Shown here in pieces: positions 1 to 45,603 of a stretch of DNA of 64,000 bases (position 1 is the stretch's first letter; each line of letters begins with the position of its first letter). Origin of the DNA: Squalus acanthias (taxonomy: Eukaryota); assembly GCA_030390025.1 (NCBI GenBank), contig CM059453.1, forward strand, positions 7,130,001 through 7,194,000. Direction: 5' to 3'. The notes beneath the pieces were generated by a model. It was not told the DNA's origin and did not search any database. It saw only the letters and a list, made by a program, of their open reading frames with translations. Position numbers and translations under genes: made by a program.

Positions 1-2244
1 CAGGAGGTTAAAGGCTGCAACAGCCGCTGTGTCTAGTGGGAATGTGCTGGCCTTCAGTAGAGGTTGGATTCGGTCCGAGAAGTTAGGAATCCATTTAGCA
101 TAGTATGCAAACAGGCCGAGGGCTCGGCGCAAGGAGGCTGGATTCTTAGGTGGCGGGAGTTCTTGGAGTGGGCGAAGCCTTTCAGGGTCAGGTTTAATGA
201 TGCCATTGCCCACACAATAGCCAAGGATGTTGATGGTTGGTTGTGACTCAATGGATTTAGCCGCATTTAATGTCAAATTACGGTGCTGGAGTGCATCCCA
301 AAATCGTTGGAGATTGGCGTCATGTTCCCGCTGATTGCGACCTGCGACAGTAATATTGTCCAGATAAGGAAACGTATCCTTTAAGTCTACCTGTTTGACC
401 AGGTCATCCATTGCTCGCTGGAAGACAGCCACTCCATTAGTGACCCCAAAGGGGAGGCGACGAAATTGATACAGCCGTCCATTGGCTTCAAAGGCCGTAT
501 ACTGCTTGTCTGAGACCTTCAAGGGTACCTGATGATAGGCACTTTTCAGATCATATGTTGAGAACACCGTGTACTCAGCCAGTTTATTAACCATATCATC
601 GATGCGCGGCAATGGGTATGCGTCCAAGTCCGTATATTGATTGATGGTCTGTGAATAGTCAATGCACAGCCGTTTCTTGTGAGGTTGTAGAGGGTTCTTA
701 ACAATAACGACCTGGGCGCGCCATGGCGACGAACAAGGCTCGATGATATCCTCTGCTAAAAACCGAGAAATCTCAGCCGCAATAAAAGACTGGTCTTCCT
801 GACTGAAACGTCGTGACTTTGTTATAATCGGTTTGCATCGAGGAGGGATACTGGTAAACAGTGAGGGTTCATCCAGTGAAGCTGCTGACAATGCACAGAA
901 CGGTAATCGAGGTCGTATATTAGAAATAGTGAGTTCAGGTTTGGATCCGCCGAACTCAATGGTGAGCTTCTTATGCTGCTTTTGAAAATCTAGCCCTAAG
1001 ATAAGATCACTACATAAGTCCTTGAGCACCGAAAGCCGGGTGGAGGGAAACCTGTGACCATTAAGTGTTATTTCAACCATACAAAAGCCAGAAATTCTGG
1101 TATTAAGTGATGACTGAGCCATCGCAATTGCCTGGTCCGATGGGAAAACATGTAGCTTTAACTCTGCAACAATCTGTTCCCTAATGAAACTATCAGTGCT
1201 ACCTGAGTCAATTAAGGCATCTAAAGTATGTCCATTAATTGATGCTTTTGTAGCTGCATGGAATAGGTTCTGAGGACAAGCAGCTGTAATTGGTGTCGTT
1301 GCACAAAGAGTGGCTGAAACTCTAGGTGTGTTTCTTCGAGAGAAAACCCGAGAGGAAGCACGATAGATTTTAGCCGGAACATCTTGATAGGCCCTTACCG
1401 GGGCAGTTCGGTAGGACTTAGCTTGATAAGCCCTCGTAGAGGCTCTTGATAGGCAAACCTTTGCAAAATGACCCTTTTTGTTGCAATGACTGCAAAACGC
1501 ATTGCGAGCAGGGCAGAATTTCCGAGGGTGAAACTCATCACCACAAAAGAAGCATTTCTTAGATTGCCAAGAGGCTGCCACAGTGGGATCATCATCCTCT
1601 TCATCAGTGAAGTCATCAGATTGATCGTCAGGGATAAAGTCCTCCCTAATAGAGTTCACCTGTGGCCTCTTAAATTGCCTGACTGTAGTTAAGGCAGCAG
1701 ACCGAGGTCTGGGCACTGTATAAAGGTCTGCATTTCTTTTTGCCAGATCTAGAGAGCAAGCCATGTCATAAGCTCTCTGAAGCTCAAGTGTCTTACTTTC
1801 CAGTAGACGCTGGCGTATAAATGGGGAGGCAAGCCCGCAGATGAAAGCATCACGGATCATTTCTTCACGGTACAGCTCAGCTGAGGCCGCCTGAAAGTTA
1901 CAGTCCATACTAAGTCTGCGAAGCTCTTGGAGGAATTTATCAATGGATTCCTCCGGCCCTTGTTGGGCTGTAGCTAGTAGATGTCTGGCATAGACCTCAT
2001 TCGCTGTCTTAGTATATAGTCTTTTAAGCGTCCGAATTGCCTCCTCGTAACTGCCCCATTCCTCGACATACTGAAATACATTCGGGGTGACACAGTTGAT
2101 GAGTATCCGCAATTTTGAGTCATCATCAGCCTTGCAATATTCGAGAAAATTGTCAAACGTGCGATACCAGTGTTTCCACACCTTACCGGCTGCTGGGGTG
2201 TTTGGGTCCAAGTCAAGACGCGATGGTTTAAGGATGTTTTCCAT
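1..2244 (-). CDS. Gypsy LTR retrotransposon 1 gag-pol polyprotein, running off the left edge
   Basis: Starts MENILKPSRLDLDPNTPAAGKVWKHWYRTFDNF. Contains a zinc knuckle (CFFCGDEFHPRKFC...CSHCNKKGHFAKVC), protease LIDSG and RT PYLDNI. Spot-checked codons at 2244, 1560, 366 and 3 are in one frame, and the ORF track reports no stop-terminated ORF in that frame. Confidence 0.9.
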   Translation of the reverse strand, partial: MENILKPSRLDLDPNTPAAGKVWKHWYRTFDNFLEYCKADDDSKLRILINCVTPNVFQYVEEWGSYEEAIRTLKRLYTKTANEVYARHLLATAQQGPEESIDKFLQELRRLSMDCNFQAASAELYREEMIRDAFICGLASPFIRQRLLESKTLELQRAYDMACSLDLAKRNADLYTVPRPRSAALTTVRQFKRPQVNSIREDFIPDDQSDDFTDEEDDDPTVAASWQSKKCFFCGDEFHPRKFCPARNAFCSHCNKKGHFAKVCLSRASTRAYQAKSYRTAPVRAYQDVPAKIYRASSRVFSRRNTPRVSATLCATTPITAACPQNLFHAATKASINGHTLDALIDSGSTDSFIREQIVAELKLHVFPSDQAIAMAQSSLNTRISGFCMVEITLNGHRFPSTRLSVLKDLCSDLILGLDFQKQHKKLTIEFGGSKPELTISNIRPRLPFCALSAASLDEPSLFTSIPPRCKPIITKSRRFSQEDQSFIAAEISRFLAEDIIEPCSSPWRAQVVIVKNPLQPHKKRLCIDYSQTINQYTDLDAYPLPRIDDMVNKLAEYTVFSTYDLKSAYHQVPLKVSDKQYTAFEANGRLYQFRRLPFGVTNGVAVFQRAMDDLVKQVDLKDTFPYLDNITVAGRNQREHDANLQRFWDALQHRNLTLNAAKSIESQPTINILGYCVGNGIIKPDPERLRPLQELPPPKNPASLRRALGLFAYYAKWIPNFSDRIQPLLKASTFPLDTAAVAAFNLL

Positions 2245-2322
2245 GATGGGAGATTCCCTGGATCCTTAGTTCCGAGTTCGTCCAAAAAGTTTGAGTGCGA
2301 AGATTTTCAAAGTTGATTAAAT

Positions 2323-2516
2323 TGTCGTAAGAATGAGCCTTACGCGTGGTGAACTTAAAGTAAGCTTTAATCAACTAAAAAGGTGCTACATACAAAAGAG
2401 GTCTTACTCTATGCCTCTCCAGGATCCAACTGATCAGCCCAGTATTTATCCTGGACTAATCACAGGAAGTGATGTAATAAAGTTCGAGTCACAGGAAGCT
2501 GTATTGTGTTACCACA
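2323..2516 (-). mobile_element. 5' LTR of Gypsy element 1 (194 bp, TG...CA)
   Basis: On the minus strand it reads TGTGGTAAC...CTTACGACA with GATAAATA and ATTAAA, upstream of gag. It interrupts a CR1 RT fragment that resumes at 2517. Confidence 0.8.
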
Positions 2517-5500
2517 TATAGTGTATTCATTTGCCTTGTTAGCCCTCCCTAAATGCATTATCTCACACTTCTCCAGAATGAATTCCATTTGCCACTGTTC
2601 TGCCCAACTGACCAGTCCATTGATATCTTCTTGCAGTCCACAGCTTTCTTCTTCATTCTCAACCACACGGCCAATTTTTGTATCATCTGCAAACTTCTTA
2701 GTCATACTTCCTACATACAAGTCCAAATCATTGATATATACCACAAACAGCAAAGGACCAAGTACTGAGCCTTGCGGAATCCCACTGGAAACAGCCTTCC
2801 AGCCACAAAAACACTGAAGTGCAGGAACATTTTAGTCCAACACAAAGGTAGATAAAGACAAAAACTGATCAGAAGTTATTGAAATGTTTAGCAGAAATTA
2901 CATGTTGGAGTATTTAGCCAGATTTGTTTACAAGGTTGTAACTCGGAAATCCTCACAACATAACAGCATTTGAACATAAGAATTAGGAGCAGGAATTGGC
3001 CATTCCGCTCCTCGAGCCTGCTCCGCCATTCATTCAGGTCATGGCTGACCTTTGACATCAACTCCACATCCCGCCCGATCCCCATATCCCTTTCTCTCCC
3101 TAGAATCCAAAAATCTATCTATGTCAACCTTGAATATAATCAACGACTCAGCATCCACAGCGCTTTGGGGTGGAAAATTCCATATATTTGCAACCCTCTG
3201 AGTGAAGAGATTCTTCCTCATCTAAGTCAGAAGAAGATAAGAACATAAGAAATAGGAGCAGGAGTAGGCTATATGGCCCCTCGAGGCTGCTCAGCCATTC
3301 AATAAATCATGGGTGATCATCGACCTCAACTCCACTTTCCCGCCCGATCTCCATATCCCATTGATTCCTTATGAGTCCAAAAATCTGCCTGTCTCTGCCT
3401 TTTATACATCCTCAAAGACTCAACATTCACAGCCCTCTGGGGCAGGGAATTCCAAAGATTCACAACCCTCTGAGTGAAGAAATGTCTCCTCATCTCAGTC
3501 GTAAATCGCCTACCCCTTCACCTGAGACTTTGACCCCCGGTTCTAGAGACACCAGCCTGGGCGAAACATCCTCTCAGCATCTGCCCTATCTTTCCCCTTC
3601 AGAATCTTCTATACTTCAATGAGATCACCTGTCATTTTTCTAAACTCCTTTCTCCACCCATACTGATTATATTTCCAGATCTTCCGAGCCAAGATCATTT
3701 TTCTCTACTGTCCATATGTTATCCTTTATAATCAGGGCTATTCACCCTCCTTTCCATTCCGTCGGTCTTTTTGAAACGTCAAGTACCCTGGAATATTTAG
3801 TTCCCAACCTTGGTCACCTTGCAACCACGTTTTTGAAATGGCTATTAGATCAAACCTATTTTATTCTATTTGTGTCACTAGTTCGTCTATCTTGTTACGA
3901 ATGCTTCGTGCTTTCAGATAAAGAGCCTTTAATTTAATTTGTTACCATTATTCCCTGCTTTGACCTTATTCTCTGCTGCACTGCTCCCGTTAAACTCTCT
4001 GTCACTTCCTGTCACACTCTGCTAATATTTACCCAAATCACTACACTGCTCTATTGCCTTGAGCTTTCTTTTTAGATTTCTAAATTTCCCCTCACCTGAT
4101 CCACTCCCCCTTTTTTAGTTTAAAGCCCTATCTACAGCCCTAGTGAAGACGCTTGTCCCAGCCCGGTTTAGGTGGAGCCCTTACTAATGGAACAGCTCCC
4201 TCTTTCCCCAGTACTGATGCCAGTGCCCCATGAATTGAAACCCTTCTTCTCACACCACTTTCTGAGCCAAGCATTTAGGTATCCGATCTGCTTCACCCTA
4301 TGCCAATTTGAACGTGGCTCAGGTAGTAAACCAGAGATTATTACCCTTGAAGTTGCGCTTAATAACTTAAACCCAAGCACCTCGAACTCCCTCAGCAGAA
4401 ACGAATTATTTGTTCTACCTATGTCGCTGGTTCCTACATGGAGCACGACAACTGGATCCTCCCCCTCCCACTCCAAATTCTTCTCCAGCCGCGTGGAGAT
4501 ATCCTTAACCCTGGTATCGGGCAGGCAACACAGCCTTCGGGACTCTCTTTCACAGCTGCAGAGAACAGTATCTATTCCCCTGATTATACTGTTCCCTACT
4601 AACTACCACATTCCTTCCTTCTCCCCCCACTTGTTGGCCCCCTGTACCACAGTGCCATGGTCAGTTTTCCTATCCTCCGTGCAGTCCTTTTCCTTATCCA
4701 TACAGGTAGCAAGTACCTCGTACCTATTGGACAAGGTCCAGGGCTGAGGCTCATCCACCACTACATGCTGGGTCACCATACCTTCCTGACTCGCAGTCAT
4801 ACCTTCCTTTCCCTGACCACTGACGAACTCTAAAGTAGTACTGAACTGAAAGGTTGTTGCTGCCATCTGGAACAAAGTGTCCAGGTAATTCTCCCCCTCC
4901 CTGATGCATCGCAATGTCTGCAGCTCGTACTCCAGCTCAACAATTCTGAGCCGAAGTTCCTCGAGTTGCAGACACTTACTGCAGATGTGGTTGGTCAGAA
5001 TCGCGTTGCACTCCAGAGAAGCCCACATACTGCAGTTGCGACACACCTGCTGCCCCGCCATCTCTAACCTTGTTTTATTTATTAATTCATTAGTGAAAGC
5101 TTTTATTCAATCGATATTTCAGTTTTATTGTTTCATTATTTTATCTAGTCTAAGTTATCAATTTAATAAGTATTGGAAGTTAGATTTTCTCAGCTCAAAA
5201 TTTAATGCATTCCCTAAGTTAGAGAGCAAAAAAGAGCTGAAATATTCACCAACCAATCACCTACCTGCTCTGCTGTGACTTTACTTTGATGTTTTTGTTG
5301 TTTTTGAATCGGAGGCTCGCCGCTGCCGCTGTTCGAAATGGCCGATCCCTCATCCTGAGACTATGGCCCCTAGTTCGAGATTCCCCCACGAGGGAAAACA
5401 GCCTCTCAGCATCTACCCTGTCAATCCCCCTCAGAATCTTATATGTTTCAATGAAATCACCTCTCATTCTTCTAAACTCCAGAGAGTTAGGCCCAATCTA

Positions 5501-5535
5501 CTCAATCTCTTCTCATTGGACAACCCTCTCATCAG
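2517..5535 (-). mobile_element. Stack of CR1 LINE fragments (RT piece, 3' ends, ORF1 region)
   Basis: KFADDTKIG RT motif at 2517-2815. CR1 3' tails (AGAACATAAGAA..GGAGCAGGA) near 2973 and 3235. ORF1 esterase-like VVVLHVGTSD and CxxC-rich N-terminus at 4168-5061. Confidence 0.85.
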
Positions 5536-5795
5536 ACATGTTGCTCCAGGAAATATATGGATTAATTGACTGCTCATTGGCTCGATGCAATTTCATACCT
5601 GAGTTATTGCCTTGCTAGAAATTAGGGGAAAGGAAAGTCTGATGAAGCATTAAATGAATACAAGATGAACTGGTTCTAATCAAACTCGTTATGTGCAGTG
5701 ACCTCTCTGCTTAATCTAAACGCCGAAGTTGGTTCTATTTAAACACTGCAAACTGCTGTATGGAGTTATCTCAAGCTGGCTTCACTTTTTTTTAG

Positions 5796-6083
5796 ATAAA
5801 CCCACAATAGTATCAGGCCTGACCTGCACCAGCTCTGAGGGTGTGGTTCATTGCACATGCAGTGTCAGAGCCAACCCCCAAGCAAACATCACCTGGGGCA
5901 TCAATGGGAGAAACATCACTGCGAACAGTTCAGATAACAATATCCTCTCCTCGGGGTTGAAAAGTCACCTGGTGAAGAGCTCCCTGACACTGACTCAACC
6001 AACTGCAACTGAACGCCTGATCTCATGTTTTGGAGTGAACGAGCATGGCGTTACTGTCGGAAAATACCAGCTCCAATCTGGAG
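5796..6083 (+). CDS. Gene A (Siglec-like receptor): membrane-proximal Ig (C2-like) exon
   Basis: tttag/ATAAACCC...GGAG/gtatat, 288 nt, phase 1-1. Encodes KPTIVSGLTC...HCTCSVRANP..NITW...ISCFGVNEHG. About 90% identical to 31018-31305. Upstream exons presumably lie left of the window. Confidence 0.9.
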
Positions 6084-6960: not shown

Positions 6961-7060
6961 TGTTCTTAACAGCTTCCCGTACATGCTGTTAAATGTTATG
7001 TTGAATCTTGGTATAATCTTAGAGCAATAATGAAGAGCACGATTTTTTTTTATATTTTAG

Positions 7061-7182
7061 GATCATTTTGGAGAATTGTCATGCTAATCAGAGCCGCCGT
7101 CGCAGTTCTCATTCTGATTGGCATCATTGTCTTGGTGACGATAGAGACTCATTCACACAGATATGGTTCATATTACTTATAG
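7061..7182 (+). CDS. Gene A transmembrane exon with TM arginine and read-through short tail
   Basis: Acceptor atattttag/GA matches the gene B TM exon. Encodes GSFWRIVMLIRAAVAVLILIGIIVLVTIETHSHR. The donor position reads CAG/atatgg instead of CAG/gtatgt, so the frame continues YGSYYL to TAG at 7180-7182. Confidence 0.75.
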
Positions 7183-7957
7183 TCGTGCTTTAATAAGACA
7201 GATTTCAAAAGAACGTGACATCAGGATTTCAGCCCATGAGCAAATATTGCTTAATGTAATTAACCCCAGATATCATTGAACCTGAATCTCAGCGAAGAGT
7301 TGACAAGGGAATGCTTGCTGGAGTTCGGGTGTCTTGTGAAGGGAAAGTAGGAGAATGTCAGAAGTTCAGCGTCCCATGTCTGGTCTTTCACTTCTTAGTT
7401 CAAAGATTGTACATCAGGGCCAGTGCAGAAATTGGGTGCAAAATCTAGACTGTCACTTAAGCGGAGGCGCCGTATTTCATACCAGACAATTTGAGCTGAA
7501 CACGGTTTGGCAGCTCAAAGCCCCCGTGGCCATATTGGCGGTAGACCTCATGACTCAGGAGGTCATAAACTGCTCCACAGAACCATTGCTGGACACGAAA
7601 GGGCAAATTCCGGTGCATTTTTAAGACTTGGCGGAAATTGCTATGGTTATTCTGCACCAGTAGAGGCCGCTCGCTTAGCATCCATAAAATGTTCAGTGAA
7701 CACTGAATTTGTCAGAGCAGATCAAGATAGATATAACCAGCTTCATCAGATAGAGAGAATGCTTTCTTTGGAATTAGGAAAGTGTAGAGATAGAAAAGAA
7801 ACGGGTATTAAATCTGGTCGCAGCCAATCAGGAAACCTTAACAAGAACGAGTTACTATAGAGCGCCCCCTGTGGTTCAACACAGGGACACTGGGTGTTGT
7901 ATTGAAGCGAATTATCTGTAATTAGGAGACGTTAATCATTTGTATTCAATGTTTCAG

Positions 7958-8043
7958 GAAGAAGGTAAATATCCCTGTTGGGGTCTCTCCTACAGACAAG
8001 GGGGCAGCGATTTACTGTGTGTTGCAGAACCCACTGAAATGAG
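7958..8043 (+). pseudogene. Gene A first cytoplasmic exon (probably a relic; ends in a stop)
   Basis: ttcag/GAAGAAG...TGAG/gtaagt encodes RKKVNIPVGVSPTDKGAAIYCVLQNPLK*. It aligns to 38456-38543 with a 2-nt deletion that creates TGA. Confidence 0.7.
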
Positions 8044-9860: not shown

Positions 9861-12800
9861 TGTCATAAATCGCAAGTAACAACTCAGGAAGTACTACTGT
9901 GTGGCCAGCTGGGGCGCCGTCCAGGGAGTATAAATACTCAGGCATGGGCCCACCTTGGGCAGAGACAATCTGGAAACAGGAAGCTAGTGACTGCTAACTA
10001 GACCTCCATGTTTTGTTACAAGTTGATTAAAGCCTTGCTTTATGTTCAAGTGCGTAGTGAGTCTTTATTACGTCAATTTAATCAACTTGATATCGTCTCC
10101 ACGCTTTGGGTGATTCGGAACAACCAGCTGCAACTCGAACCACAGAAGGGAACTTGGGCAAGAAACTGATCCATCATGGAAAAACTCCTTAGACCCGCTC
10201 GTCTCGACCTGGACCCGAATGCACCTGCGGCAGCAAAGGTATGGAAGCATTGGTTTCGTACCTTTAGCAACTTTCTTGAAGAATGTGGGGCGGATGTCCC
10301 TAATAAGTTACGAATGCTTATCAACTACGTGTCTCCTCATGTGTATGATTATATTGAGGACTGTATAGACTATGACACTGCTATCGAAATCTTACAGCAG
10401 CTATATGTCAAGTCCCCAAATGAAATCATTGCTTGACACCTACTGGCCACAACTCGGCAGCAGCCTGGGGAATCACTCGATGAATTTCTCCAGAAACTTC
10501 GCAGGCTCAGCAAGGATTGTAACCTTAAAGCAGTTTCAGCTGAACAGTATCAAGAGGAACTAATCCGCGATTCCTTTATCAATGGAATCACGTCCCCTTT
10601 TATACGTCAGCGCCTGCTGGAAAATAAAACGCTCAATTTACGGGCTGCTTATGACCAGGCGTGTTCCTTGGACTTGGCCAAGAAAAATGCAGACACTTAT
10701 CTCCCACCACGTGCACGGGCGGCGGCTATCTCCTTTAATGAGTCTTTCGGTAGGTCTCGGGCGGATGCCCCCACTGATGTTGACTCTACTCTAACAGACG
10801 ACGACCCTACCCTAGAGGCCTTCGCTGATGACGACCCCGCCCTAGCAGCATCTTGGCAATCAGGAAGAAAGTGTTTCTTTTGTGGAGGGGCGGCCATCAC
10901 AGAAAATTTTGCCCGGCTCGTAATGTGACCTGCAATCATTGCAGCAAGAAAGGACACTTTTCCAAGTTATGCCAGTCACGGGCCTCTGCTAACAAGAAAG
11001 GCCGCTCCTCTAAAGTATACCGGTCGAGAGCTCCTGTTAGCTTCACAGCTGCTATCTATGGAGCTGCTCCTCCCCCAGGAACCACTGTTAAGGCTGCAGT
11101 TGCCGAAGGGAAAATTGCCCCTCCTCCCATCACGGCTGTTTTTCCCCAAAGTTTGTCCCATGCAGCCACGAAGGTTTCAGTAAATGGGCACACTCTAAGT
11201 GCGCTAATCGACTCCTGCAGCTCTGACAGCTTCATTAGTAAGCGGGCTGTCAACACGTTAAAACTGCACATTTATCCCTCGGACAGGGAGATTGCAATGG
11301 CTCTGACGACTCTGACCACCAATTCTTCTGGCTTCTGTCTGGTCAACCTCATCCTCAACGGCCGCACGTATCTCTCCACCCGGCTCGGAGTACTCACAAA
11401 CTTATGCAGCGATGTGCTTCTGGGACAGAACTTCCAGAAGCAGCACAAGAAGATCACTTTTGAGTTTGGAGGGTCAAGGCCGGAGCTTACCATTTCTAAG
11501 GTGCCGTTTTGTGCACTCTCGGCGGCCTTACTCGGTGAACCCTCCCTGTTTGCCAATCTTCCCCCCCGCTGTAAACCCATAGCCACCAAATCGCGGCGCT
11601 TTAGCCAAGATGATCGAGCGTTTATTGAGGCGGAAATCTCTCGCCTTTTAGTCGACGGTATTATCGAGCAATGTTCATCTCCCTGGCGGGCTCAGGTCGT
11701 CATCGTGAGGAATCCCTTAAAACAAAATAAAAAACGTCTGTGTATCGATTATTCGCAGACTATTAATCTATATACCGATCTGGATGCCTACCCGCTGCCA
11801 CGCATAGATGACATGGTCAACAACCTTGCCAAATACAAGGTATTCTCGACCTTCGATTTAAAAAGCGCGTACCATCAGGTGCCACTGCAAGACTCCGACA
11901 AGAAGTATACGGCCTTTGAGGCCAATGGTCGGCTTTTCCAGTTTCACCGCCTTCCATTCGGGGTCACCAATGGGGTGGCCGTCTTCCAACGGGCCATGGA
12001 TGGCCTAGTCCGGCAAGAGAACTTGACGGATACCTTTCCGTATTTAGACAATATCACTATTGCCGGCCATGATCAAAAGGAGCATGACGCCAATCTTCAG
12101 AGATTTTTTGACGCACTCCGCCGTCGCCACTTAACATTAAACGAATCCAAATCGGTGAAGTCGGTGCCATCGGTGAACATTCTTGGCTGCTGGGTGGGCA
12201 ACGGTGTTATTAAACCAGACCCAGAGCGACTTCGTCCACTTCAGGAGCTCCCTCCCCCGACGAACCTCGGCTCTCTTCGTCGGGCACTTGGCATGTTTGC
12301 TTATTACGCAAAATGGATACCACACTTCTCCGATAAAATACAGCCCCTGCTCCATGCAAAGTCTTTTCCATTGGAAGCTATGGCTATTTCTGCCTTCAAC
12401 CTCCTCAAACGACAGCTGGAGAAAGCCACGCTTCGCTCCATTGACTAAAATCTTCCTTTTGTGGTCGAATGCGATGCATCGGAGGTGGCGATCTCCGCTA
12501 CCTTGAATCAAGGTGGCCGACCCGTGGCATTCCTATCCAGAACCTTGCAGGGTAGCGAGCTCCATTACCCCCCCCCCCCGTCGAGAAGGAGGCTACGGCC
12601 ATCATCGAGGCTGTACGCCAATGGGGTCATTTTCTTGCTCGGCGTCATTTTACGCTTATAACTGACCAGCGCTCTGTGGCCTTCATGTTGGATAACCGGA
12701 GGCGCACGAAAATCAAAAATAATAAAATTCAACTCTGGAGGATGGAGCTGGCTGCCTTTGGATATACTATCTGTTACCGACCCGGCAAACAGAACGTGGC

Positions 12801-14374
12801 CCCAGATACCTTCACACGGGCATTTTGCTCCTCAATGTCAACGTCGACTCTGGCGGATTTGCATATGGACTTATGCCATCCTGGTGTGACCCGCATGTTG
12901 CACATTGTGCGCTCCAAAAATCTACCATTTTCAACCGAGGACGTAAAGAAAACATGCTCCTCCTGTAGGATTTGTGCAGAATTGAAACCACAATTCTTTC
13001 GCCCATCAGATGGCTTACTCATACATGCAATGCAGCCTATGCAGAGGCTCAGCATAGACTTTAAAGGGCCATTGCCTTCGTCGACAAGGAACACCTACCT
13101 ACTTACGATGGTGGACGAGTATTCACGCTTTCCCTTCGCCTTCCCCTGCCCTAATATGCTTACCTCTACAGTAATTAAATGCCTCGATCAGGTCTTTTCC
13201 CTTTGCGGGACGGCCAATTTTATCCACACTGATCGGGGTCCCTCCTTTATGTCGAGTGAACTTAAAAGTTATCTCTCCCAACGGGGAATCGCCTCAAGTA
13301 GGACGACACCATATCACCCAATCGGTAACGGACAGGTTGAACGATACAATGCCATCATCTGGAACGCTGTCCGTCTGGCACTAAGGTCACGCAACCTGCC
13401 GGACCAGCAGTGGGAAACGGTGCTCCCCGACGCGTTACACTCTATCAGGTCTCTTCTCTCCACATCTACTAATGTCACGCCTCATGAGCGATTCTTCAAA
13501 TTCCGGCGTCGCTCTACACATGGGACGTCTCTACCGTCATGGTTGGTGGCTCCAGGCCCGGTACTACTCCGGAGGTTCGTCCGGTCTGCCAAAAACGACC
13601 CTCTCCTTGACGAGGTGGAGTTAACGGAGTTAAACCCCACGTATGCGCACGTACGTTACCCTGATGGCCGGGAGACCACCGTCTCGCTCCGAGATCTGGC
13701 TCCCTGCCCAACCGGTCACACGGGCCCGAATGATGAAGGATCCCCCGACAATGATATCAACACTCCGCACCCCTATGAAAATGACGCCCCGCCTGGGACA
13801 TCGGGGGATCTGCCGGCAACGCTACCGGATCAACTCAGGGAGCTGGACGCTCCCCGTAGGATGGCCACCCGAAACCAGGACGCCGGACAATCTCCAGCCA
13901 CGACCCGGGATGAGGCCAGCTCAGCACCTGTGGGGACCCGCACCCGGAGTCATGATATTCCCAGTCCTCCACAGGATGATCAAGATGACGCGGACTCTAC
14001 TGACTTACCGGTACGGGCCAAGCGACCCAGGGACCAGGACATGGTCCGGGGAGACGTGCCTTCCAGTCACAAGCAGAGAGCTAAACGTCTGCGGCTATTT
14101 CTGGTCCGCTTAGTCCGTTAAAGGAAGACTGGACTTCCAAACCTGTTAGGGAGGAAGAATGTCATAAATCGCAAGTAACAACTCAGGAAGTACTACTGGG
14201 TGGCCAGCTGGGGCGCCGTCCAGGGAGTATAAATACTCAGGCATGGGCCCACCTTGGGCAGAGACAATCTGGAAACAGGAAGCTAGTGACTGCTAACTAG
14301 ACCTCCATGTTTTGTTACAAGTTGATTAAAGCCTTGCTTTATGTTCAAGTGCGTAGTGAGTCTTTATTACGTCA
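9861..14374 (+). mobile_element. Full-length Gypsy LTR retrotransposon 2 (4514 bp)
   Basis: 215-bp LTRs at 9861-10075 and 14160-14374 (TG...CA, one mismatch T9900/G14199). 5-bp TSD GAGGG at 9856-9860 and 14375-14379. Polypurine tract AGGGAGGAAGAA at 14148-14159. Order gag-PR-RT-RH-IN. Confidence 0.97.
10176..14121 (+). pseudogene. Disrupted gag-pol of Gypsy element 2
   Basis: Gag, zinc knuckle, LIDSC protease, YLDN RT, RNase H ECDAS and integrase (HPG..CxxC, IDF/TDRG/VER). Broken by TGA at 10434, a 1-nt deletion near 10890, TAA at 12446 and a poly-C frameshift near 12568-12579. Confidence 0.92.
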
Positions 14375-14452: not shown

Positions 14453-14617
14453 AGCCAAGACCAGTATCGAAATATTGCTATCAGATGATCTACATCCAGC
14501 AATCATCGCAGAGTGTAGAGGTTCTGCTCGCAATCGGTGAATATTTGAAGTCTTCACAAACATGAAGGAGATCTCCAGAATGAGGAGTACAGTGTATAGA
14601 CCGCGATTAAGTTTAAA
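14453..14617 (+). pseudogene. Decayed terminal (ITIM/ITSM) exon of gene A
   Basis: ttacag/AGCCAAGACCAGTAT aligns with gene B ttacag/AGACAAGACAAGTAT and CTCCAGAAYGAGGAG. It has an in-frame TGA, frameshifts, no ITIM Tyr, and the distal Tyr codon is TAG at 14597-14599. Confidence 0.75.
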
Positions 14618-21500: not shown

Positions 21501-22010
21501 ATCTTAGCACGCATTCCCTGTCTCCATCTTTCTCTGTCATATTCTCTCTCACAGGCTTTCTCTCTCTCACTCTTTATTCTGTAGAAAACCTAATAGATAC
21601 CATGAACATTTGAACTTAAGAAGCTAAGATTCTTAAAGTAAATAGTGGCCTAATATTTATGTTATTAAATAGAGTGTAAGAACTCTATTTAATATTTACA
21701 GCAACAGGTGGTACTAGGAAGTTACCAGGTGCAGCAAGAACTGTGAGCGAAATTAAGCGGGGTAGAATTTGATATTCTCAGTGGCATAAAGAAATTAAGG
21801 GAACTGCTTAAATCAACAACAGGATCGTGCTTAAGAAAACCAGCAAAAAGCACACAGAATACCTACAATGAGATAATAAATACATGACAAGAAATAGAAA
21901 ATGAAGACTATTAATACAGTGTGAAGGAAATCAGTGCAATTTGGAATATCATAGCTGGTGGAAGTAGGTTGTGGCGGAGGGGTGGGCGTGGAGATTATTC
22001 CCGAGACACC

Positions 22011-25000: not shown

Positions 25001-25898
25001 GCTTTGTGTGCCCGGGATGTTCAAGAGCCCTGATTTATCAGTCGCGGCTGCCGAGCCCCTCTCATTGTGTGCGTTGGAAAAACCCAGATAATTAAATATC
25101 TTTCCTGTGTGAAGAAGTCCAATTAGTATGAATAGAACGCTCAACATATTGTAATGGGGGAGCGGCAGAAAAATAAGCAATTTCCTCAGGAAAGTATAAC
25201 GGATTTCAGATTTAGAATTGTGAAAATGGGAAAGATGAGTTGTTCAAACTGCACGAGGCTCATCCGAGGTGCTTTACTGAGATCTATAAGCTAAGGTAGC
25301 GATTGATCACTAACCCCTTCATTGTAGCAGTGATACGGTCCTCTTATCTTCCAACTAATCTGGACTGATTCTGCTTCTTAATCTGATTCCAATTGCGCCC
25401 AGTTTGTATTCAGGATTTCATTCCATTGATCAATCCGCAGAGATTTGTTCCCGTAGATAAAAAAAATATCCATGTTGTTTCCAGCAGCATTGGCACTTCA
25501 ATCTAAAAGATCAAGACACACCTCTCAGTTCCAGCACTAAAGTCAGAAATTTTATAATCTCGGATCTCAATGAGTTAATTTCAGCAGATTTCATCTCGCT
25601 GCAGTGTCAGTATAAACAATTGAAGTGACTTCTAAAAATGGCACTTTACCCACTTGAAACTCTTGAAAGATAAACTCTTTTGTGTCTTTTGACATTTCAG
25701 ATACGTGTTGTGCCCCCGAACTACTGAAGGTGATCAACCCACACGTCTGCAGACAACGGCTGCAGAGCTAACCACAGCTTCACACTTCAAAGACTCGCAG
25801 TTCAAGGGCTGTTAAATAGCTCCGTGTGTGGGAGTTGGGAGTCGGGGCGTCGAAAGCTGGTGGAGAGGCTATTTTAGATATTGCAATCTAAAGTGCCA
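22011..25898. repeat. Tandem repeat of an about 1.58-kb unit (about 2.5 copies)
   Basis: AGAAAAATAAG(C/T)AATTT(C/G)CTCA recurs at about 22011, 23591 and 25168 with colinear internal sequence. The ORF pair 22927/24504 has offset 1577. Confidence 0.92.
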
Positions 25899-26264: not shown

Positions 26265-26307
26265 ATGAAGAGTATTAGATTGATCTCCCTTCTGATATTT
26301 AGCGAAG
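26265..26307 (+). CDS. Gene B exon 1: signal peptide
   Basis: gtcATG, MKSIRLISLLIFSE, G/gtataa in phase 1. Joins in frame to VVHSSRW of the V exon. Confidence 0.8.
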
Positions 26308-26703
26308 GTATAATATTCATTTTAATAATTAATATAGAAGCGATTTCCATTGTGTGGCAAATCAACACGTTCATTGTTTGTGGAGATAGTACATGTTTAG
26401 TTGGAAATTTACAAATGACCGATTTGCCCATTTAATGTATATTTCATTCGAAAAATTATCTTATATTTTATAAGATTGATCTAATATTTACTCTATGGTT
26501 TATCGACTTTCAATGGAATACTTAATGGAATCTAAAGAGTTTTAATGAAACTTTCACGAGTTTTAATGGATGTACTAATGAATTTGTTTGTGGATGTTTA
26601 TTAAAGGTTAAATTAACAGTATTTAACTTGACGATCAGGGTATGTTTAAATTGCGATATTATTGCGGATTTCATTGGGTTTTTAATTTCTGTTTTTTCAC
26701 CAG

Positions 26704-27084
26704 TTGTCCATAGTTCACGATGGTCTCTGAAGGTGCCGTGGAAGGTCTCGGCGGTAAACGGGACATGTGCAGAAATCCCGTGTACATTTGATTATCCCGC
26801 CTATGGCCGCAGTCCACAGGGTATGTGGTTAAAGGGGGGTCCTAAACCTGGTACCTCAGGGGTGTCGATTATCTGTGATTCCCGGAATTCAGACAACGTG
26901 CCCTTGAACTACAGAGGGCGAGCTCAGTTCACCGGCGAATTTGAAAAGAAACAATGTTCCTTACAGTTAAAGGACATCAGGAAGATCGATGAAGGTGTTT
27001 ATTATTTCAAATTGGAGATCATCAATGCCCAGAATAAGAGAGAAGGATATTCTACCGAATCTAAGGTCACTCTTTCTATTTTAG
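26704..27084 (+). CDS. Gene B exon 2: Siglec-type V-set Ig domain
   Basis: caccag/...TTAG/gtaggt, 381 nt. WSLKVPWKVSAVNGTCAEIPCTFDYP...W...YRGRAQFTG...CSLQLKDIRKIDEGVYYFKLE shows the CD22/CD33/MAG cysteine pattern (GxCxxIPCxF, CSL). Confidence 0.92.
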
Positions 27085-28256
27085 GTAGGTTTTTTGATCT
27101 GTTCCTTATGTAGTTTATATTCCATCGCGCCAGTGCCATTTAATTTTAGCATAAAATGGAAAGATTTCGTGTTACTCTTGCCCCATGTCACAGGCTACAC
27201 CGGCAGGACTGGTCCATTGTGTAATACCCAGGTGTGTGTTATATTTCGACTTGAACTGAAATGGGGCGCTGGCCTTCATAGTAACTTACAGAAGCACCCT
27301 CTGTTGATCAGTCAGTAAGTGCAATACTAGATGGCATTACCATCATTGGTGTCACCATTGACCAGAAACGTATTTGAACCAGCCACATCAATACTGTGGC
27401 AAAAAGAGCAGGTCAGAGGCTGGGTATTCTGTAGCGAGTGTCTCACCTCCTGACTCGCAAAGCCTTTCCACCATCAACAAGGCACAAGTCAGGAGTGTGA
27501 TGGAATACTCTCCACTTGCCTGGATGAGTGCAGCACCAACAACACTCAAGAAGCTCGACGCCATGCAGGACAAAGCAGCCCGCCTGATTGGCACCCCATC
27601 CACCACCTTAGACATTCACTCCTCCACCACCAGCGTACCATGGCTGCAGTGTCTACCATCTACAAGATGCACTGCAGCAACTCGCCAAGGCTTCTTCGGC
27701 AGCACCTCCCAAACAGGCGACCTCTTCCACCTCGAAGGACAAGGGCAGCAGGCGCATGGGAACACCACCATCTCCAAGTTCCCCTCCAAGTTACACACCA
27801 TTCTGACTTGGAAATATATCGCCGAACTTTCGTCGTCGCTGGGTCAAATCCATGGAACTGCCTCCCTAACAGCACTGTGGGAGTACCTTCAGCACATGGA
27901 CTGCAGCGGTTGAAGAAGGTGGCTCAGCACCTCCTTCTCAAGGGCAATTAGGAATGGGTAATAAATGCTGGCCTTGTCAGCGACGCTCACATTCCATGAA
28001 TCAATAAAAGAAAAGACCGGTTTGTCAAAATTCAATCCCTCAAAGATATGGTTAATTAAATCAAGATTTGTACTTCTAATGGACAGGTCAGAGGACATGG
28101 TCAATACTTAGGAGGGATTGCTTCAATCTGATCATTTACAGGCCCCCATATCATAGGGTCGTGTTTCAAATTCTTTCGGCTAAATCAACTTTCACACACT
28201 TGGCCATTATTTAAATTAAAATCTACTGTAACGCGAATGTCCTTCTCTCGTTACAT

Positions 28257-28568
28257 ATAAACCATGGATATCAGTCTCTGGGGAATTGATTGCAGGAACG
28301 CCAGCACACCTGACCTGCTCAGTCACCCACAGTTGCCCGTCCGCCAACCTTGAATTGATGTGGACCCATGACAATGTTGTACCTCCATTTCTGCCAGAGA
28401 TTAAAACTTCAAAAGGACATGATAACAGTTTCGACGATTCCCAGAAGGTTTCATCCACTTTCAACTTCAGCCCATCACTGGACCATCATGCGAAGAAGCT
28501 GGGATGTAAACTTATAGTCGACGGTGTCACAGCTACTGATGAAGAAACTCTTACACTGGATGTTAAAA
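28257..28568 (+). CDS. Gene B exon 3: C2-set Ig domain (expected acceptor reads AT, not AG)
   Basis: KPWISVSGELIAGTPAHLTCSVTHSCP...W...STFNFSPSLDHHAKKLGC...LDVK with donor A/gtaagt. This is the typical Siglec second domain with the extra Cys. Confidence 0.85.
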
Positions 28569-28854
28569 GTAAGTGCCTGCTCTACGCTTCATTCAACCAA
28601 CTTATTGATGAACCGGTTCAATAGATATCTGTATGCTAAATATAGTGGTAGCTCGCCTGGACAATTGAAGCTTCTTGTAAGTCACATTATTTCACATTTG
28701 CCCCAGAACCATGGAGTAAGTTGGTCACTCCAGGGGTGTGGTTTATATGAAAAATAATTGCAAATGCTTCCAACACCTGATTTTTGTTCAGCCACAGAGT
28801 AACTGGAACATACAGGCCAAGGAGAGTGCATTCATGGTCTGAGCTAACTCACAT

Positions 28855-29530
28855 ATATACATAGGTCATACGGCAGAGAAACAGGTCATTGGGCCCAACC
28901 AGTCCATGCTGGCGTTTATGCTCCACTCGAGCCTCCTCCCGTCTTTCCTCATCTAAATCTATCAGCCTAACCCGCTATTCCCTTCTCCCTCATATGCTTG
29001 TCCACCCTCACCTTAAATGCATCTCTACTTTTCGCTTCAACCACTCCCTGTGGTAGCGAGTTCCTCATTCTCACCACTCTCTGGGTAAAGAAGTTTTTTC
29101 TGAATTCCCTATTGGATTTCTTGCTGACTATCTTATATTGATGGCCTCTAGTTATCTTCTTCTCCACAAGTGGAAACATTCTCTCTGTATCTGCTCTATG
29201 AATGCCTTTCATAATTTTAAAGATCACTATTAGGTCACCCCTCAGCCGTCTTTTTTCAAGACAAAAAAGACTCAGCCTGTGCATCCTTCCCTGATATGTA
29301 TACCCCCGCATTTCTGGTATCATCCTTGCAATTCTTCTCTACCCCCTCTCCAGTGCCTCTATATCATTTTATAATATAGCGGCCAGAATTGCATGCAGTA
29401 CTCTAAATGTGGTCTAACCGAGGTTCGATATAGATTTAGCATAACTTTCCTACTTTTTAATTTTATCCAGCTCGGAATAAACCCTAGTGCTTGGTTTGCT
29501 TTTTTCTGGTCTTGCTAACCTGTGGCGCAA
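28855..29530 (-). mobile_element. CR1 LINE 3' fragment
   Basis: LEKRRLRGDLI...FFTQRVV..NSLP. Confidence 0.85.
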
Positions 29531-29896
29531 TTTAGCTGGGGCGGTGTTCGGGATTCTACAATTAGCCTCACCACCACTGTGTAAGAGATGGGAAAGTCCG
29601 CCCTACTTATTCTGGGAGGAATGGCCTCTTGGTTGATGTACCGGAGGAATAGAACCTTATGCGGGAAAACATATAACTCTTCAAATCCTTGAAGATAAGA
29701 AGGAAAAGAAGGCTTAGTTTTGAAATAAGCTTATCATCTAGGGCGTAAAAGTCATGTGCTGCATTTTTAATTCATAGTTTACAAGAAAACCAACATATCT
29801 AAGTTTAATATTCTTCTTTAGTTGTCACATATATTGTTTTATTTTCCTCATCCGCACTGATAACGCATTTAGAAACAATGGCATTATCTCTTCCAG

Positions 29897-30154
29897 ATGG
29901 CCCACAAAAACCAGGCATCAATTCCTCTATAGCGGCAGTGGAAGGGAGCTCTTTATTATTATACTGCACGGCCAGGGGGACCATACCGAGCAACTTAACC
30001 TTGGTCCGAAATGGTGAGGAGATCAGCAAGTCTTCCACTGGTGAACTGAAGCACATATTCCACAACATTAGTTTTGAATATAACGGTGAATATTGGTGCG
30101 TGGCTGATAATAACTTGGGCAAAGCGAACAGCTCCTCACAGATTTCTGTACAAT
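29897..30154 (+). CDS. Gene B exon 4: C2/I-set Ig domain
   Basis: ttccag/ATGGC...CAAT/gtaagt, 258 nt. EGSSLLLYC...GEYWCVADNNLG. Confidence 0.92.
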
Positions 30155-30409
30155 GTAAGTGCTGTGTCAACCTATCAAATGTATATTGGGACATCAATCC
30201 GTCTTACAGTGATTAGGCCTCGGTGTTTTCCCCCCAGTGTTCACACAACTTTCTCAAAATCCGTAGTAATATTGCCTGAAATGTCAGTAAAAGGAGAGTT
30301 GAACCAAATTCATTGAGTAAAAGACACTTTAAAAAAAAACTGGACACCCCGATACACAACTCCAGGTAAAATGTATCTCTGATTGGTTAAAACCAACTGA
30401 ATGAATATG

Positions 30410-30765
30410 TGGGATCTCCATATCCCTTGATTCCCCTAGAGTCCAAAAATCTGTCTATCTCAGCCTTGAATATGCTCAATGACTCAGCATCCACAACCCT
30501 TTGGGGAAGAGAATTCCAAAGATTTACTACCCTCTGAGTGAAGAAATTCCTCCTGATCTCAGTCTCAAATGGCCGTCCCCTTATCCTGAAACGATGCCCC
30601 CTAGTTTTCAGCTCTCCGGACAGGGGAAACAATCTTTCAGCATCTACCCTGACAATCCCCCTCAGAATATCATGTTTCAATGAGGTCATCTCTCATTCTT
30701 CTAAACTCCAGCGAGTATAGGTCCAAACTACTCAATCTCTACTCAAAGGACAACCGACTGATCCC
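30410..30765 (-). mobile_element. CR1 fragment at the position equivalent to 5335-5535 in gene A
   Basis: CR1 ORF2 end. Its junction with the unique intron sequence (GGACAACC...ACATG...CCAGGAAATATATGGAT) is shared with gene A. Confidence 0.8.
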
Positions 30766-31017
30766 ACATGATTTTCCAGGAAATATATGGATCAATTGAC
30801 TGCTTGATGCAATTTTATATCTTATTAATTGCCTTGCTAGAAATAGGGGAAAGGAAAGTCTGATGAAGCATGAAATGAAAGTAACATTGAATGGTTCTAA
30901 TTAAACTCGTTATGTGCAGTGACCTCTCTTCTTAATCTAATCGCCGAAATTGGTTCTATTTAGACACTGCAAACCGCTGCATGGAAACAATTTCAATATG
31001 ACTTCACTTTTTTTTAG

Positions 31018-31305
31018 ATAAACCGACAGTAGTATCAGGCCCGACCTGCACCAGCTCTGAGAGTGGGGTTCATTGTACCTGCAGTATCAGAGCAAACCCC
31101 CCAACAAACATCACCTGGGGCATCAATGGGAGAAACATCACTGTGAACAGTTCAGATATCAATATCCTATCCTCGGATTTGAATAGTTACCTGGAGCAGA
31201 GCTCCCTGACACTGACTCACCCAACTGGAACTGGACACCTGATCTCATGTTTTGGAGTAAACGAGCATGGCGTTACTGTCGGAAAATACCAGCTCAAAAC
31301 TGAAG
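31018..31305 (+). CDS. Gene B exon 5: membrane-proximal Ig domain
   Basis: tttag/ATAAACCG...GAAG/gtatat, 288 nt, open frame. Paralog of 5796-6083. Confidence 0.92.
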
Positions 31306-31564
31306 GTATATATTACATTTTACTGTAAAATAAGTACGGCGGACGGTTTGGTCCATCACCTGTCAGTGACTAACTGAACGGTGTTAATGTCAGCAAATAA
31401 CAGTTCCATTCGATAGCTGCATGCCAAATCCATTGGTAATTTAAGTCTGAATCCATGGATTTTTGGAGTAGTTTATGGTCTGGCCAACATCTCGTTGAAA
31501 GTTGCGATGGGAATAATGAATGCATTTAAAATCTGTCTCTCATTTCCGGGTCTGTTTATATACT

Positions 31565-34500: not shown

Positions 34501-34980
34501 CAGAGGAGATTCACCAGGATGTTACCTGGGCTGGAGCGTTTCAGCTATGGTAAGACTGGACAGGCTGGGGTTGTTTTCCTTGGAGCAGAGAAGGCTGATT
34601 GAGGTGTCCAAATTATGAGGGGCATAGATAACCTAGATAGAAAGTAACTTTTCCCCTTAGCAGAGGGATCACTAACCAGGGGGCATAATTTCAAGGTAAG
34701 GGGCAGGAGGTTTAGAGGGGAATTGAGGAAAAACTTTTTAACCTGGAGGGTGATTGGAACCTGGAACTCACTGCCTGAAAGGGTGGTAGAGGCGGGAACC
34801 CTCACAACATTGAAGAAGCATTTAGATGAGCACTTGAAACGCCATAGCATACAAGGCTACGGACAAAGTGCTGGAAAATTGGTTTATAATAGACAGGGCT
34901 TGATGGCCGGTGCGGACACGATGTGCCGAAGGGCCTCTTTCTGTGCTGTATAACTCGATGACTCTATGACTATGACTCTA
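31565..34980. mobile_element. Cluster of CR1 fragments in both orientations (gene B intron 5)
   Basis: About 31565-31925 (-), 32100-32760 (+, with a nested tail), 33150-33515 (-) and 33615-34980 (+, RT motifs and GACTCTAT tail). Unique sequence is interspersed. Confidence 0.85.
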
Positions 34981-35360
34981 TATAGGACAGCAATCTTAAG
35001 ACAATTATTTCAAATTTAGACAAGGGACAAATCCATTGCTGAAATTCAGTGTTAGTCTTTGGAAAGAGAAATCGGTTCAAATGATGCTCTCTCTGTGTCG
35101 AGGGAACATTGCCCAATAAATGAATAAAATATAATAAGGATTTGTAGGGAGATTAGATTTGGGGTCATTTCCAAGTCCTCCATCTTCTGATAGTCGGGTC
35201 AGTGTCCTGTCTTTTTAGGAATGGATAGAAATACTGAACTCTTACTTTTAAGATGAGAATTTCGAGGAAACTTGCCTACACAAGCTGACAAAAGTTATCC
35301 TTAAACCATGATGTAATCTTAGAGCAATGATAAACAGCAAAGTCTTTTTGAATATTTTAG

Positions 35361-35445
35361 GAACATTTCCCTGGGAAATTGTCATCTCAGTCCTAGCAGC
35401 CGCGGCAGTTATTCTTTTGATCCTGATCGTGGTGATGGTGCACAG
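35361..35445 (+). CDS. Gene B exon 6: transmembrane segment (uncharged core)
   Basis: ttttag/GA...CAG/gtatgt. GTFPWEIVISVLAAAAVILLILIVVMVHR, phase 1 to 2. Confidence 0.88.
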
Positions 35446-38455: not shown

Positions 38456-38504
38456 GAAGAAGACAAGAGCTACCACTGGTGTCCCCCTTACCAACCACGA
38501 TTCG
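38456..38504 (+). CDS. Gene B exon 7: cytoplasmic
   Basis: atcag/GAAGAAG...TCG/gtgagt. RKKTRATTGVPLTNHDS, phase 2 to 0, compatible with both neighbours. Confidence 0.78.
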
Positions 38505-39144
38505 GTGAGTTAATTTGTGGCGTAGACCCCGTTTAACACCGAGATAAGTGAGGGCATGGCAACGGCCCAGCATCCGATGGAGTTACCCCTGCCTGATATT
38601 GGCACTGTTTGTAACCAGAGTGAGCCACATTAACCGTGCAGTTCAACGGGTCAACACGTGTTCTGGACACCTGTTTGACGGAGTTTATAATGGATACAAT
38701 GAGCCCCTCACACGACTAACAGAAAGTAATGCGCTGGTCATGTCCTGATAAATGCATCATGCATTTTCTCTGTAGTGGATTTCTATTGAATTCAAAGTGG
38801 GTCTGAGAAAACCGATTGACCGTGTCACTACATGTATTAAACAGAATAATGTTTACGCTCCCCTCTCACACCACATTACCTCCGCTGGTTTAAATAATCA
38901 ACAAGATCACGTAGTATGAGGGCTTTGAGAGGGTCAAATAGCATGGCATTTTTGCTGGGATTATTAACATTGTCCTCCCTGGATTTTATGGCTCTATTTT
39001 ACCGCGAGGCGGCAACATTCCGTGCGAGGGGCCTGGGTGAGCAATAGGCTGGCATGACCAAGACCGGACAAATTTTAAATCCGGGATCTTAATTCAATAT
39101 CCAGCCCCGACTCCCACCCGAACCAGACTGAAACCATTGGCTAT

Positions 39145-39655
39145 AATAAAAACTGAAAATGCTGGAAATAGTCAGCAGTTCAGGCAGCGTCTGTGGAGAG
39201 AGAAACAGAGTTAACGTTTCAGGTCGATGACTTTTCGTCAGAACTGGAAACGATTCGAGAAGTAACAGATTTTAAGCAAGTGCAGATGCAGGGAAAGGAG
39301 GATAGGAAAAAAGGGAAGTTCTGTGATAGGGTGGAAGGCAGGAGATATTAAATGACAAAAGAGATGCTGGTGCAAGGCAAAAGGAGATGGTATTGGGCAA
39401 GTAAAGCAACATAAATTGGGTCTAGAGGAGGTGTAAATGGCAACGGCAGAACCATTACCAACAACTACCGTCCGAAACAATGGGGCAGTGGTGACGATCG
39501 GAAATTGTTGAACTCAATGTCGAGCCTGCAAGGCGGATAAATGCCTCATCGGAAGAGGAGGTGCCGTTCCTCGAGTTTCCGTTGAGTTTCATTGGAACAG
39601 TGTAAGAGGCCGAGGTCAGAGAGGTCAGAGTGGGAGTGGAGCGGAGAACTAAAAT
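39145..39655 (-). mobile_element. Penelope-like retroelement 3' fragment
   Basis: LLHCSNETQRKLEERHLLFR (end of the GIY-YIG region) and the terminal motif AATGCTGGAAATA..CAGCA. Confidence 0.7.
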
Positions 39656-39908
39656 CAAGCTGGCCCAGGGGGACACAGCGGGAACTGCCCCCCAGCAGTC
39701 GGGTAAGTGTTGAGGAGGGGGGAATACTATCGGCGCGGCGGTTCTCGGGGCCAGGGGAAGCCCACGGTTTCCTTTTCGAGGCAGAACGAGTTGAATAGGA
39801 CAATTAGAATGGTGGCAGTGATGGAATAAAGCGGGTTATTCTGGTACAGTAAACACACTCTCACCCGGTTCAGTATCTCCACATCTAACGCACTGCTTTC
39901 TTTTACAG

Positions 39909-40076
39909 AGACAAGACAAGTATGGAAAAACTGGTGTGAGAGGGGCTCCATCAAACGAGTCAGCTCAAAGTGAAGAGCTCCTGTATGCAGCTGTCAGTGT
40001 TTCAAAGGTTCGAAAGCAGGAGAGATATCTCCAGAACGAGGAGTCCTGTGAATACGCCGCAATTAAATGCAATTGA
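39909..40076 (+). CDS. Gene B exon 8: inhibitory tail with ITIM and ITSM-like motif
   Basis: ttttacag/ RQDKYGKTGVRGAPSNESAQSEELLYAAVSVSKVRKQERYLQNEESCEYAAIKCN*. LLYAAV fits the ITIM consensus and CEYAAIK mirrors the distal TEYSEIK-type motif of CD33-related Siglecs. The exons sum to 1584 nt (527 aa plus stop). Confidence 0.9.
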   Translation, partial: RQDKYGKTGVRGAPSNESAQSEELLYAAVSVSKVRKQERYLQNEESCEYAAIKCN

Positions 40077-41960: not shown

Positions 41961-42061
41961 GGGGACCCCACCCTATTATGTTGTTAAATAGCCCTGCCGG
42001 ATACCGTTGAGTCTCTCTGTCGGTTGTGGAGTTAGATGTGCAAACTATCGCAGGCCAGTGT

Positions 42062-45589: not shown

Positions 45590-45603
45590 CTGCAACAGAA
45601 ACA

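Follow-up and report, generated by a model that had tools for sequence, protein, structure and literature searches.

The window (the whole stretch of DNA analysed, 64,000 nucleotides long) holds two forward-strand genes of a MAG/Siglec-like receptor family, here called gene A and gene B. Gene B spans 26265-40076 and consists of ectodomain exons at 26265..31305 (signal 26265-26307; V-set 26704-27084; C2 28257-28568; C2 29897-30154; last Ig 31018-31305), a neutral transmembrane (TM) exon with an intact GT donor (35361..35445), and an in-frame tail encoded at 38456..40076 (exons 38456-38504 and 39909-40076) with two tyrosine motifs, LLYAAV and EYAAI; we read it as the inhibitory partner. When a profile of ten family proteins was compared with solved structures, MAG was best (E 7e-68), including its membrane-proximal domain, followed among Siglecs by Siglec-8, CD22, Siglec-5, and CD33. 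The N-terminal V-set and C2 domains, present in the family and in gene B, are homologous to those of MAG/CD22/CD33. The V-set of gene B has a Lys (AAA, 27009-27011, in YYFKLE) at the site of the essential Siglec Arg, and this F-strand sialic-acid Arg is kept in 8/16 matched family V domains, including those of the shark proteins P0013 and P0014. In gene B, the acceptor of the first C2 exon is AT, not AG (28255-28256), and the ancestral cytoplasmic donor is also AT (38544-38545); a new GTGAGT donor at 38505 drops the membrane-proximal tyrosine motif with the frame preserved.

The sole ectodomain exon of gene A inside the 64-kb window (5796..6083, plus strand, phase 1-1) encodes a membrane-proximal Ig domain homologous to MAG domain 5 and is 90% identical in nucleotides to gene B 31018-31305; tblastn with eight, then four family proteins found no further gene A exons in 1-5795. 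The first-pass annotation had described the ectodomain as Siglec-like, which for gene A rests on paralogy, the gene's own evidence in the window being this last Ig exon. Downstream, an acceptor AG at 7059-7060 opens a phase-1 exon (7061..7182, plus strand) whose direct reading gives GSFWRIVMLIRAAVAVLILIGIIVLVTIETHSHRYGSYYL-stop, i.e. a TM and a short read-through tail without a YxxL/V motif. The same reading confirms the previously noted Arg (AGA, 7090..7092, at W+7), a candidate adaptor-binding residue also present in P0013 and P0014, and the Glu at the inner end of the helix (GAG, 7144..7146, R+18), which is Asp in P0014 and non-acidic in P0013 and P0023. An apolar run from Ile 7075 places five apolar residues ahead of the Arg, and 17 apolar residues separate it from the Glu. 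A second Arg beside the Trp (7072-7074) is Asp in the Mustelus model, i.e. it is not conserved.

Sliding hydropathy windows of 19-23 residues put the Arg within the predicted helix, at position 2-6, or specifically at position 6 if a 23-residue helix begins at Ile 7075, which agrees with the membrane placement first suggested; the position weighting was our own, so all such positions are approximate. In 1/6 of these approximate windows the Arg of P0013 falls just outside the helix. Neither Pfam nor the solved structures contained a relevant match to the gene A TM, and its best score in the Atlas comparison (0.80) was under the Atlas threshold. Past the Glu, the Ser-His-Arg at 7153..7161 (R+21..23), kept in Arg-type TMs, lies within the 15 nt by which the exon is longer than its neutral counterpart (100 vs 85 nt). 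At the family splice donor site, gene A has CACAG followed by AT (7161..7162), where gene B has CACAG followed by GT (35445/35446); the donor score is -0.28, compared with 4.7-11.8 for five correctly placed GT donors. Both the AT in place of GT and the short tail were correctly reported before, the latter ending at TAG 7180-7182. Of the cryptic donors considered, one at 7135 (score 3.7) was rejected as the main form, as its use would remove the conserved S-H-R.

Beyond this stop, gene A retains pieces of an older tail. A candidate polyadenylation signal, ATTAAA (7807..7812, plus strand), lies 5' of the first cytoplasmic exon, whose remnant (7958..8043, plus strand) keeps its acceptor, its GTAAGT donor (8044), and a membrane-proximal tyrosine motif, AIYCVL, and is open in the family frame until a stop at its end that results from a 2-nt loss. 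The dead ITIM or ITIM-like last exon (14453..14617, plus strand) retains its acceptor and is identical to gene B exon 39909-40076 at 113/164 nucleotides; it carries four family-frame stops and compensating 1-nt indels, and both tyrosine codons are gone. Because this exon is retained, gene A is, to judge from its remnants, derived from an ITIM-bearing MAG/Siglec-like inhibitory ancestor. Even given a GT donor, gene A would be without distal ITIMs and its product would still end in cytoplasmic exon 1. The AT at the donor need not be the cause of the tail loss, nor a conserved change; the ITIM exon is dead long since in any case. A young Gypsy-type LTR retrotransposon encoding protease, RT, RNase H, and integrase occupies the old gene A intron (9861..14374, plus strand; LTRs identical at 213/215 positions, with a 5-bp target duplication). 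Its insertion was rejected as the cause of tail loss, since LTRs that are 99% identical, set against the many lesions of the heavily damaged ITIM exon, make the element younger than the decay. An older Gypsy relative, with about 70% identity and on the opposite strand, is found at 1-2250 in the upstream intron of gene A.

The closest database proteins come from Heptranchias and Heterodontus, with about 62-64% identity. Our sample comprised 18 shark proteins and 150 listed representatives, 14 of the latter being screened and 10 kept; P0005, P0007, P0010, P0018, and P0058, which lack a usable TM, and the remaining TMs of P0004, a fused model, were left out. Among the resulting 27 family TMs (genes A and B included), four have an Arg with S-H at +21/22, i.e. 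gene A, P0013 (basking shark, Cetorhinus), P0014 (smooth-hound, Mustelus), and P0023. The Arg is at W+7 in the first three and at W+5 in P0023, three to five apolar residues lie ahead of it, and its spacing to S-H is constant in all four. S-H-R follows 21-23 residues past the Arg in P0013 and P0014 as it does in gene A, and the recurrence of both the Arg at W+7 and S-H-R at R+21..23 makes the pattern more than chance. The aligned TMs show the Arg TM conserved in at least two other sharks, whereas the Leu-Ile-Arg triplet originally highlighted is found in gene A only, with P-I-R in P0013 and P0014. None of the seven TMs from Heptranchias is of the Arg type, despite this being the closest-matching species, and when a TM-only profile of the three Arg TMs was run against 1823 candidates, it recovered nothing beyond the two database members from which it had been built.

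The tails of these proteins vary. P0014 ends three residues beyond S-H-R, and P0013 is modelled with a spliced tail of 53 residues, without tyrosine. Read-through of the donor also occurs in some neutral models (P0023 and P0085), so that, with P0013 spliced, neither the donor loss nor the read-through tail is assignable to Arg-type genes as a group. Other outer basic residues are a Lys at W+5 in P0011, which has an ITIM tail, and a Lys at W+8 in P0031 and P0045, both with short tails. In P0045, the combination of Lys at W+8 with a short tyrosine-free tail may represent a second activating form, of the DAP12 type, or an artefact of the model.

The last-Ig tree places every Arg gene next to a gene with a neutral TM: gene A with gene B (support 88/70) and, all at starred support, P0014 with P0015, P0013 with P0003, and one half of P0023 with the other. 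Identities of the last Ig are 78% for A-B, 95% for P0014-P0015, 96% for the P0023 pair, and 85% for P0013-P0003 (different species), and 48-60% among the Arg genes. As a group on this tree, the Arg genes appear in 0% of 200 bootstrap trees, and a forced grouping of three of them is rejected (AU p 4.9e-5). By contrast, three Arg TMs group on the TM tree (94/84; below the starred threshold, with 28-31 columns), and the group is still there, weakly (80/55), once the Arg columns and three long-branch rows are taken out. Nucleotide identity between A and B is 83-90% around the Ig exon vs 58-76% from the TM onward. The dN/dS of the Ig exon between the two genes is about 1.06 (6.5 and 21.5 changes), without sign of purifying selection; on so few changes, this value does not tell a fast-evolving receptor from a decaying copy. 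Within one cluster, A and B join ectodomains that are alike to signalling ends of opposite kind, as do P0014/P0015 and the two TMs of P0023. Arg genes that stand with neutral paralogs at the Ig and together at the TM are, as read from these trees, the paired-receptor pattern, and they fit an old activating TM/tail module whose ectodomains were homogenised towards inhibitory neighbours.

The first-pass annotation likened the gene A TM to the LILRA/GPVI motif. In passages of PMC2413239 and PMC6557307, the LRC FcR-gamma TM is defined by NxxR, an N-terminal DYT, and an acidic C-end, and Xenopus FcR-gamma-coupled receptors have TM and short tail in a single exon; NxxR TMs are also used there by unrelated FCRL- and SLAM-like families (PMC6557307, in part). 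The shark TMs were compared with this published textual definition. An outer Arg is present (position 2-6 in approximate windows; W+7 in three sequences), and the acidic C-end is found in two of four (E in gene A and D in P0014, absent from P0013 and P0023). TM and short tail share one exon in the genomic reading of gene A (7061-7182), whereas P0013 is modelled otherwise. All four shark Arg TMs lack the NxxR Asn at R-3 (M, L, F, and I instead) and DYT, their exons opening with GSFW, GSFW, GPFW, and GMQFW. Furthermore, the gene A TM exon and both flanks align with the neutral TM exon of gene B (68%, 76%, 75%), and the Pro-Val/Ile context at W+5/6 recurs in neutral paralogs. A comparable His-Ser follows the TM in FcalphaRI, LILRA, and GPVI. 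Given that Asn and DYT are absent and that the exon has its homolog in the neutral TM exon native to the family, the likeness is probably convergent, i.e. the gene A TM probably works like an LRC TM from outside the LILRA/GPVI module. What remains of the original comparison is the outer Arg, its match to FcR-gamma partners, and the one-exon tail; membership is lost for want of the NxxR Asn and DYT.

Siglec-14 is the Arg-bearing Siglec that uses DAP12. Published work gives position rules for adaptor choice: according to parts of PMC1440944, FcalphaRI pairs with FcR-gamma through an Arg at position 3, human type I partners of DAP12 have a Lys at position 7-12, the surrounding TM sequence matters little for pairing, and a Lys-to-Arg change reduced KIR assembly to 15%. 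The same parts describe type II proteins in which Arg is used, i.e. NKG2D with DAP10 and rodent Ly49 with DAP12. The KIR2DL4 Arg is at position 4, in the FcR-gamma class (PMC1440944 and PMC8102735, in part), and macaque KIRs with Arg at position 4 bound FcR-gamma and not DAP12 (PMC8102735, in part). The rule for DAP12-coupled Siglecs, a basic residue (usually Lys) at position 7-12, does not describe gene A, which has no Lys and an Arg at approximate position 2-6 when judged by the published rule. The type and outer depth of this Arg fit FcR-gamma rather than DAP12 by these position rules, although position 6, in the 23-residue window, is close to the DAP12 range of 7-12. The reading of this TM as one of activating type, carried by a member of a MAG/Siglec-like family, is upheld, the outer Arg matching FcR-gamma partners (FcalphaRI 3, KIR2DL4 4). 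By contrast, the clean split that equated Siglecs with DAP12 and Lys is not: passages of PMC6890642 and PMC9404585 describe the activating Siglecs 14, 15, and 16 as DAP12-coupled, and DAP12-paired Siglecs as using lysine or arginine. A search of the open literature on shark FcR-gamma/DAP12 found nothing relevant, and adaptor words had zero occurrences in the elephant shark supplement (PMC3964593), possibly a limit of text extraction.

We propose, with a probability of about 0.55, that gene A is an activating member of a paired shark MAG/Siglec-like family, its Arg pairing with an FcR-gamma/CD3-zeta-type dimer. The sequence shows the family's own neutral TM exon altered by an Arg acquired in the outer turns and by five added codons that end in S-H-R, the tyrosine-motif exons dropped from use, and the gene A TM exon reading through into a short tail. 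The trees suggest that gene conversion or repeated recombination keeps the ectodomain exons like those of the inhibitory neighbour and that the Arg TM is common to shark lineages. By mammalian rules, the Arg would pair with the outer Asp pair of the FcR-gamma/CD3-zeta-type ITAM dimer, engagement of the ectodomain would trigger Syk-family kinase signalling through it, and the ligands would probably be sialylated or pathogen-derived. Likeness to LILRA/GPVI/FcalphaRI would then be convergent. The expression of gene A, its activating function, gene conversion, and FcR-gamma/zeta use are what we infer from sequence.

The same paired activating receptor might instead bind DAP12 or DAP10, like activating mammalian Siglecs, which we regard as unlikely. 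Siglecs 14, 15, and 16 do couple to DAP12 through lysine or arginine (PMC6890642 and PMC9404585, in part), the type II proteins NKG2D and rodent Ly49 do use Arg with DAP10 and DAP12, respectively (PMC1440944, in part), and the gene A Arg is at approximate position 6 in the 23-residue window; however, DAP12 prefers a central Lys in type I receptors, the Lys-to-Arg KIR assembled to 15% (PMC1440944, in part), and the macaque KIR Arg at position 4 binds FcR-gamma, not DAP12 (PMC8102735, in part). Only 17 apolar residues run from Arg to Glu, and the Pro at R-2 in P0013 and P0014 suggests the first helical turn, both of which also count against DAP12 or DAP10. Slightly more doubtful is the idea that the Arg TM is a true family feature and gene A a decaying pseudogene, its AT donor being a lesion or an assembly error. 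Gene A does lack another ectodomain exon in 1-5795, its Ig dN/dS is about 1, its cytoplasmic exon 1 still has good splice sites, and lesions are common in the cluster (the AT acceptor, the AT donor at 38544, and the V-set Lys of gene B). Yet both the Ig exon and the TM exon are open and keep their acceptors, distant sharks share the TM residues even as four stops built up in gene A's own ITIM exon, P0014 likewise ends a few residues past S-H-R, and a GT donor would only move the end of the product into cytoplasmic exon 1.

It is improbable that the Arg does no more than anchor to head groups on the outer face of the membrane, in a tail-less decoy or adhesion receptor that uses no adaptor. The 17-19 residues past the Arg are near the 18-21 of neutral paralogs, the P0013 Arg lies just outside the helix in one window, and a Lys is found about as deep in P0011, which has an ITIM tail; against this, the Arg comes after three to five apolar residues, keeps one spacing to S-H across the four Arg TMs, and accompanies paired ectodomains and the loss of tyrosine tails. 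We give very little credence to shared ancestry between the shark Arg TM and the LRC NxxR exon, which would place an FcR-gamma-coupling TM on a Siglec-like receptor in the jawed-vertebrate ancestor and, if true, link the Siglec and LRC families. Least probable is true homology between the TM and the LRC NxxR exon, by shuffling onto a Siglec-like gene or by descent from a common ancestor: alignment with the neutral TM exon of gene B along exon and flanks (68%, 76%, 75%), the absence of Asn and DYT in 4/4, and the Pro-Val/Ile at W+5/6 shared with neutral paralogs all oppose it, even though the NxxR module is mobile, occurring in unrelated Xenopus FCRL-/SLAM-like families (PMC6557307, in part), and the acidic C-end and single TM-plus-tail exon match.

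As a proposed paired activating receptor, gene A has several partial counterparts. Siglec-5/Siglec-14 and Siglec-11/Siglec-16 resemble the shark pair in setting beside an ITIM receptor a partner with a similar Siglec-type ectodomain, a short tail, and a basic residue in its TM. They differ in that the mammalian partners use DAP12, whereas the shark family is independent and closest to MAG in architecture, with the sialic-acid Arg in only 8/16 matched V domains. LILRA2, PIR-A, GPVI, OSCAR, FcalphaRI, NKp46, and Xenopus XFL TM1 have, like gene A, an outer Arg in a type I TM and a tail in the TM exon, and their acidic inner end recurs in gene A and P0014; however, gene A has no NxxR Asn, no DYT, a non-LRC ectodomain, and a family-derived TM exon. 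Macaque activating KIRs and KIR2DL4 offer a further parallel (an Arg near 4, a splice-site mutation that shortens the tail, and ectodomain recombination), although they have a KIR ectodomain and demonstrated FcR-gamma binding, which for gene A is predicted. Siglec-15 and mouse CD33/Siglec-H are likewise activating with a basic TM residue, but theirs is a Lys with DAP12, whereas gene A combines an outer Arg with a dead ITIM exon.

Background on Siglecs and paired receptors was drawn from parts of PMC13358205, PMC6288428, PMC8198044, PMC4345914, PMC13233462, PMC6941304, PMC4536121, and PMC7226832. In these parts, Siglec-15 is conserved to fish (PMC6941304, PMC7226832) and activating Siglecs are described as DAP12-coupled (PMC6288428, PMC7226832), while relevant passages of PMC6557307 follow the FcR-gamma Arg TM back no further than amphibians. 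The word 'cartilaginous' was absent from the searched portions of PMC13358205, PMC6941304, PMC4536121, and PMC7226832, and within the open-access literature (subscription literature being outside our scope) we found no report of shark MAG/Siglec-like activating/inhibitory pairs. If our reading of gene A is true, paired Siglec-like receptors extend to cartilaginous fish, with a dead ITIM exon recording the switch, and FcR-gamma coupling had a further independent origin, on a Siglec-family lectin in sharks. Gene A would also allow a direct test, on a small scale, of whether the identity and depth of an Arg suffice to determine the adaptor when the NxxR Asn is missing.

Other parts of the window contain further members of the cluster and several repeats. 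On the minus strand, 45431-45590 belongs to another receptor gene and is its last exon, with the tyrosine motifs ITYTTV and EYAAI, 58% identity to the end of Heptranchias P0004 and an in-frame stop 5' of the motifs; tblastn with family proteins found no other exons of this gene in the window. At the window edge, 63950-64000 (minus strand, opposite orientation) holds the end of one more ITIM exon of the family, with EYAAI. A tandem repeat with units of about 1.6 kb that are 82-89% identical occupies 22009-25898 and has minus-strand open frames, one of which was tested and had no Pfam match. At 40630-42010, a long short-period tandem repeat array gives rise to spurious open frames, and a 255-base assembly gap lies at 53090-53344.
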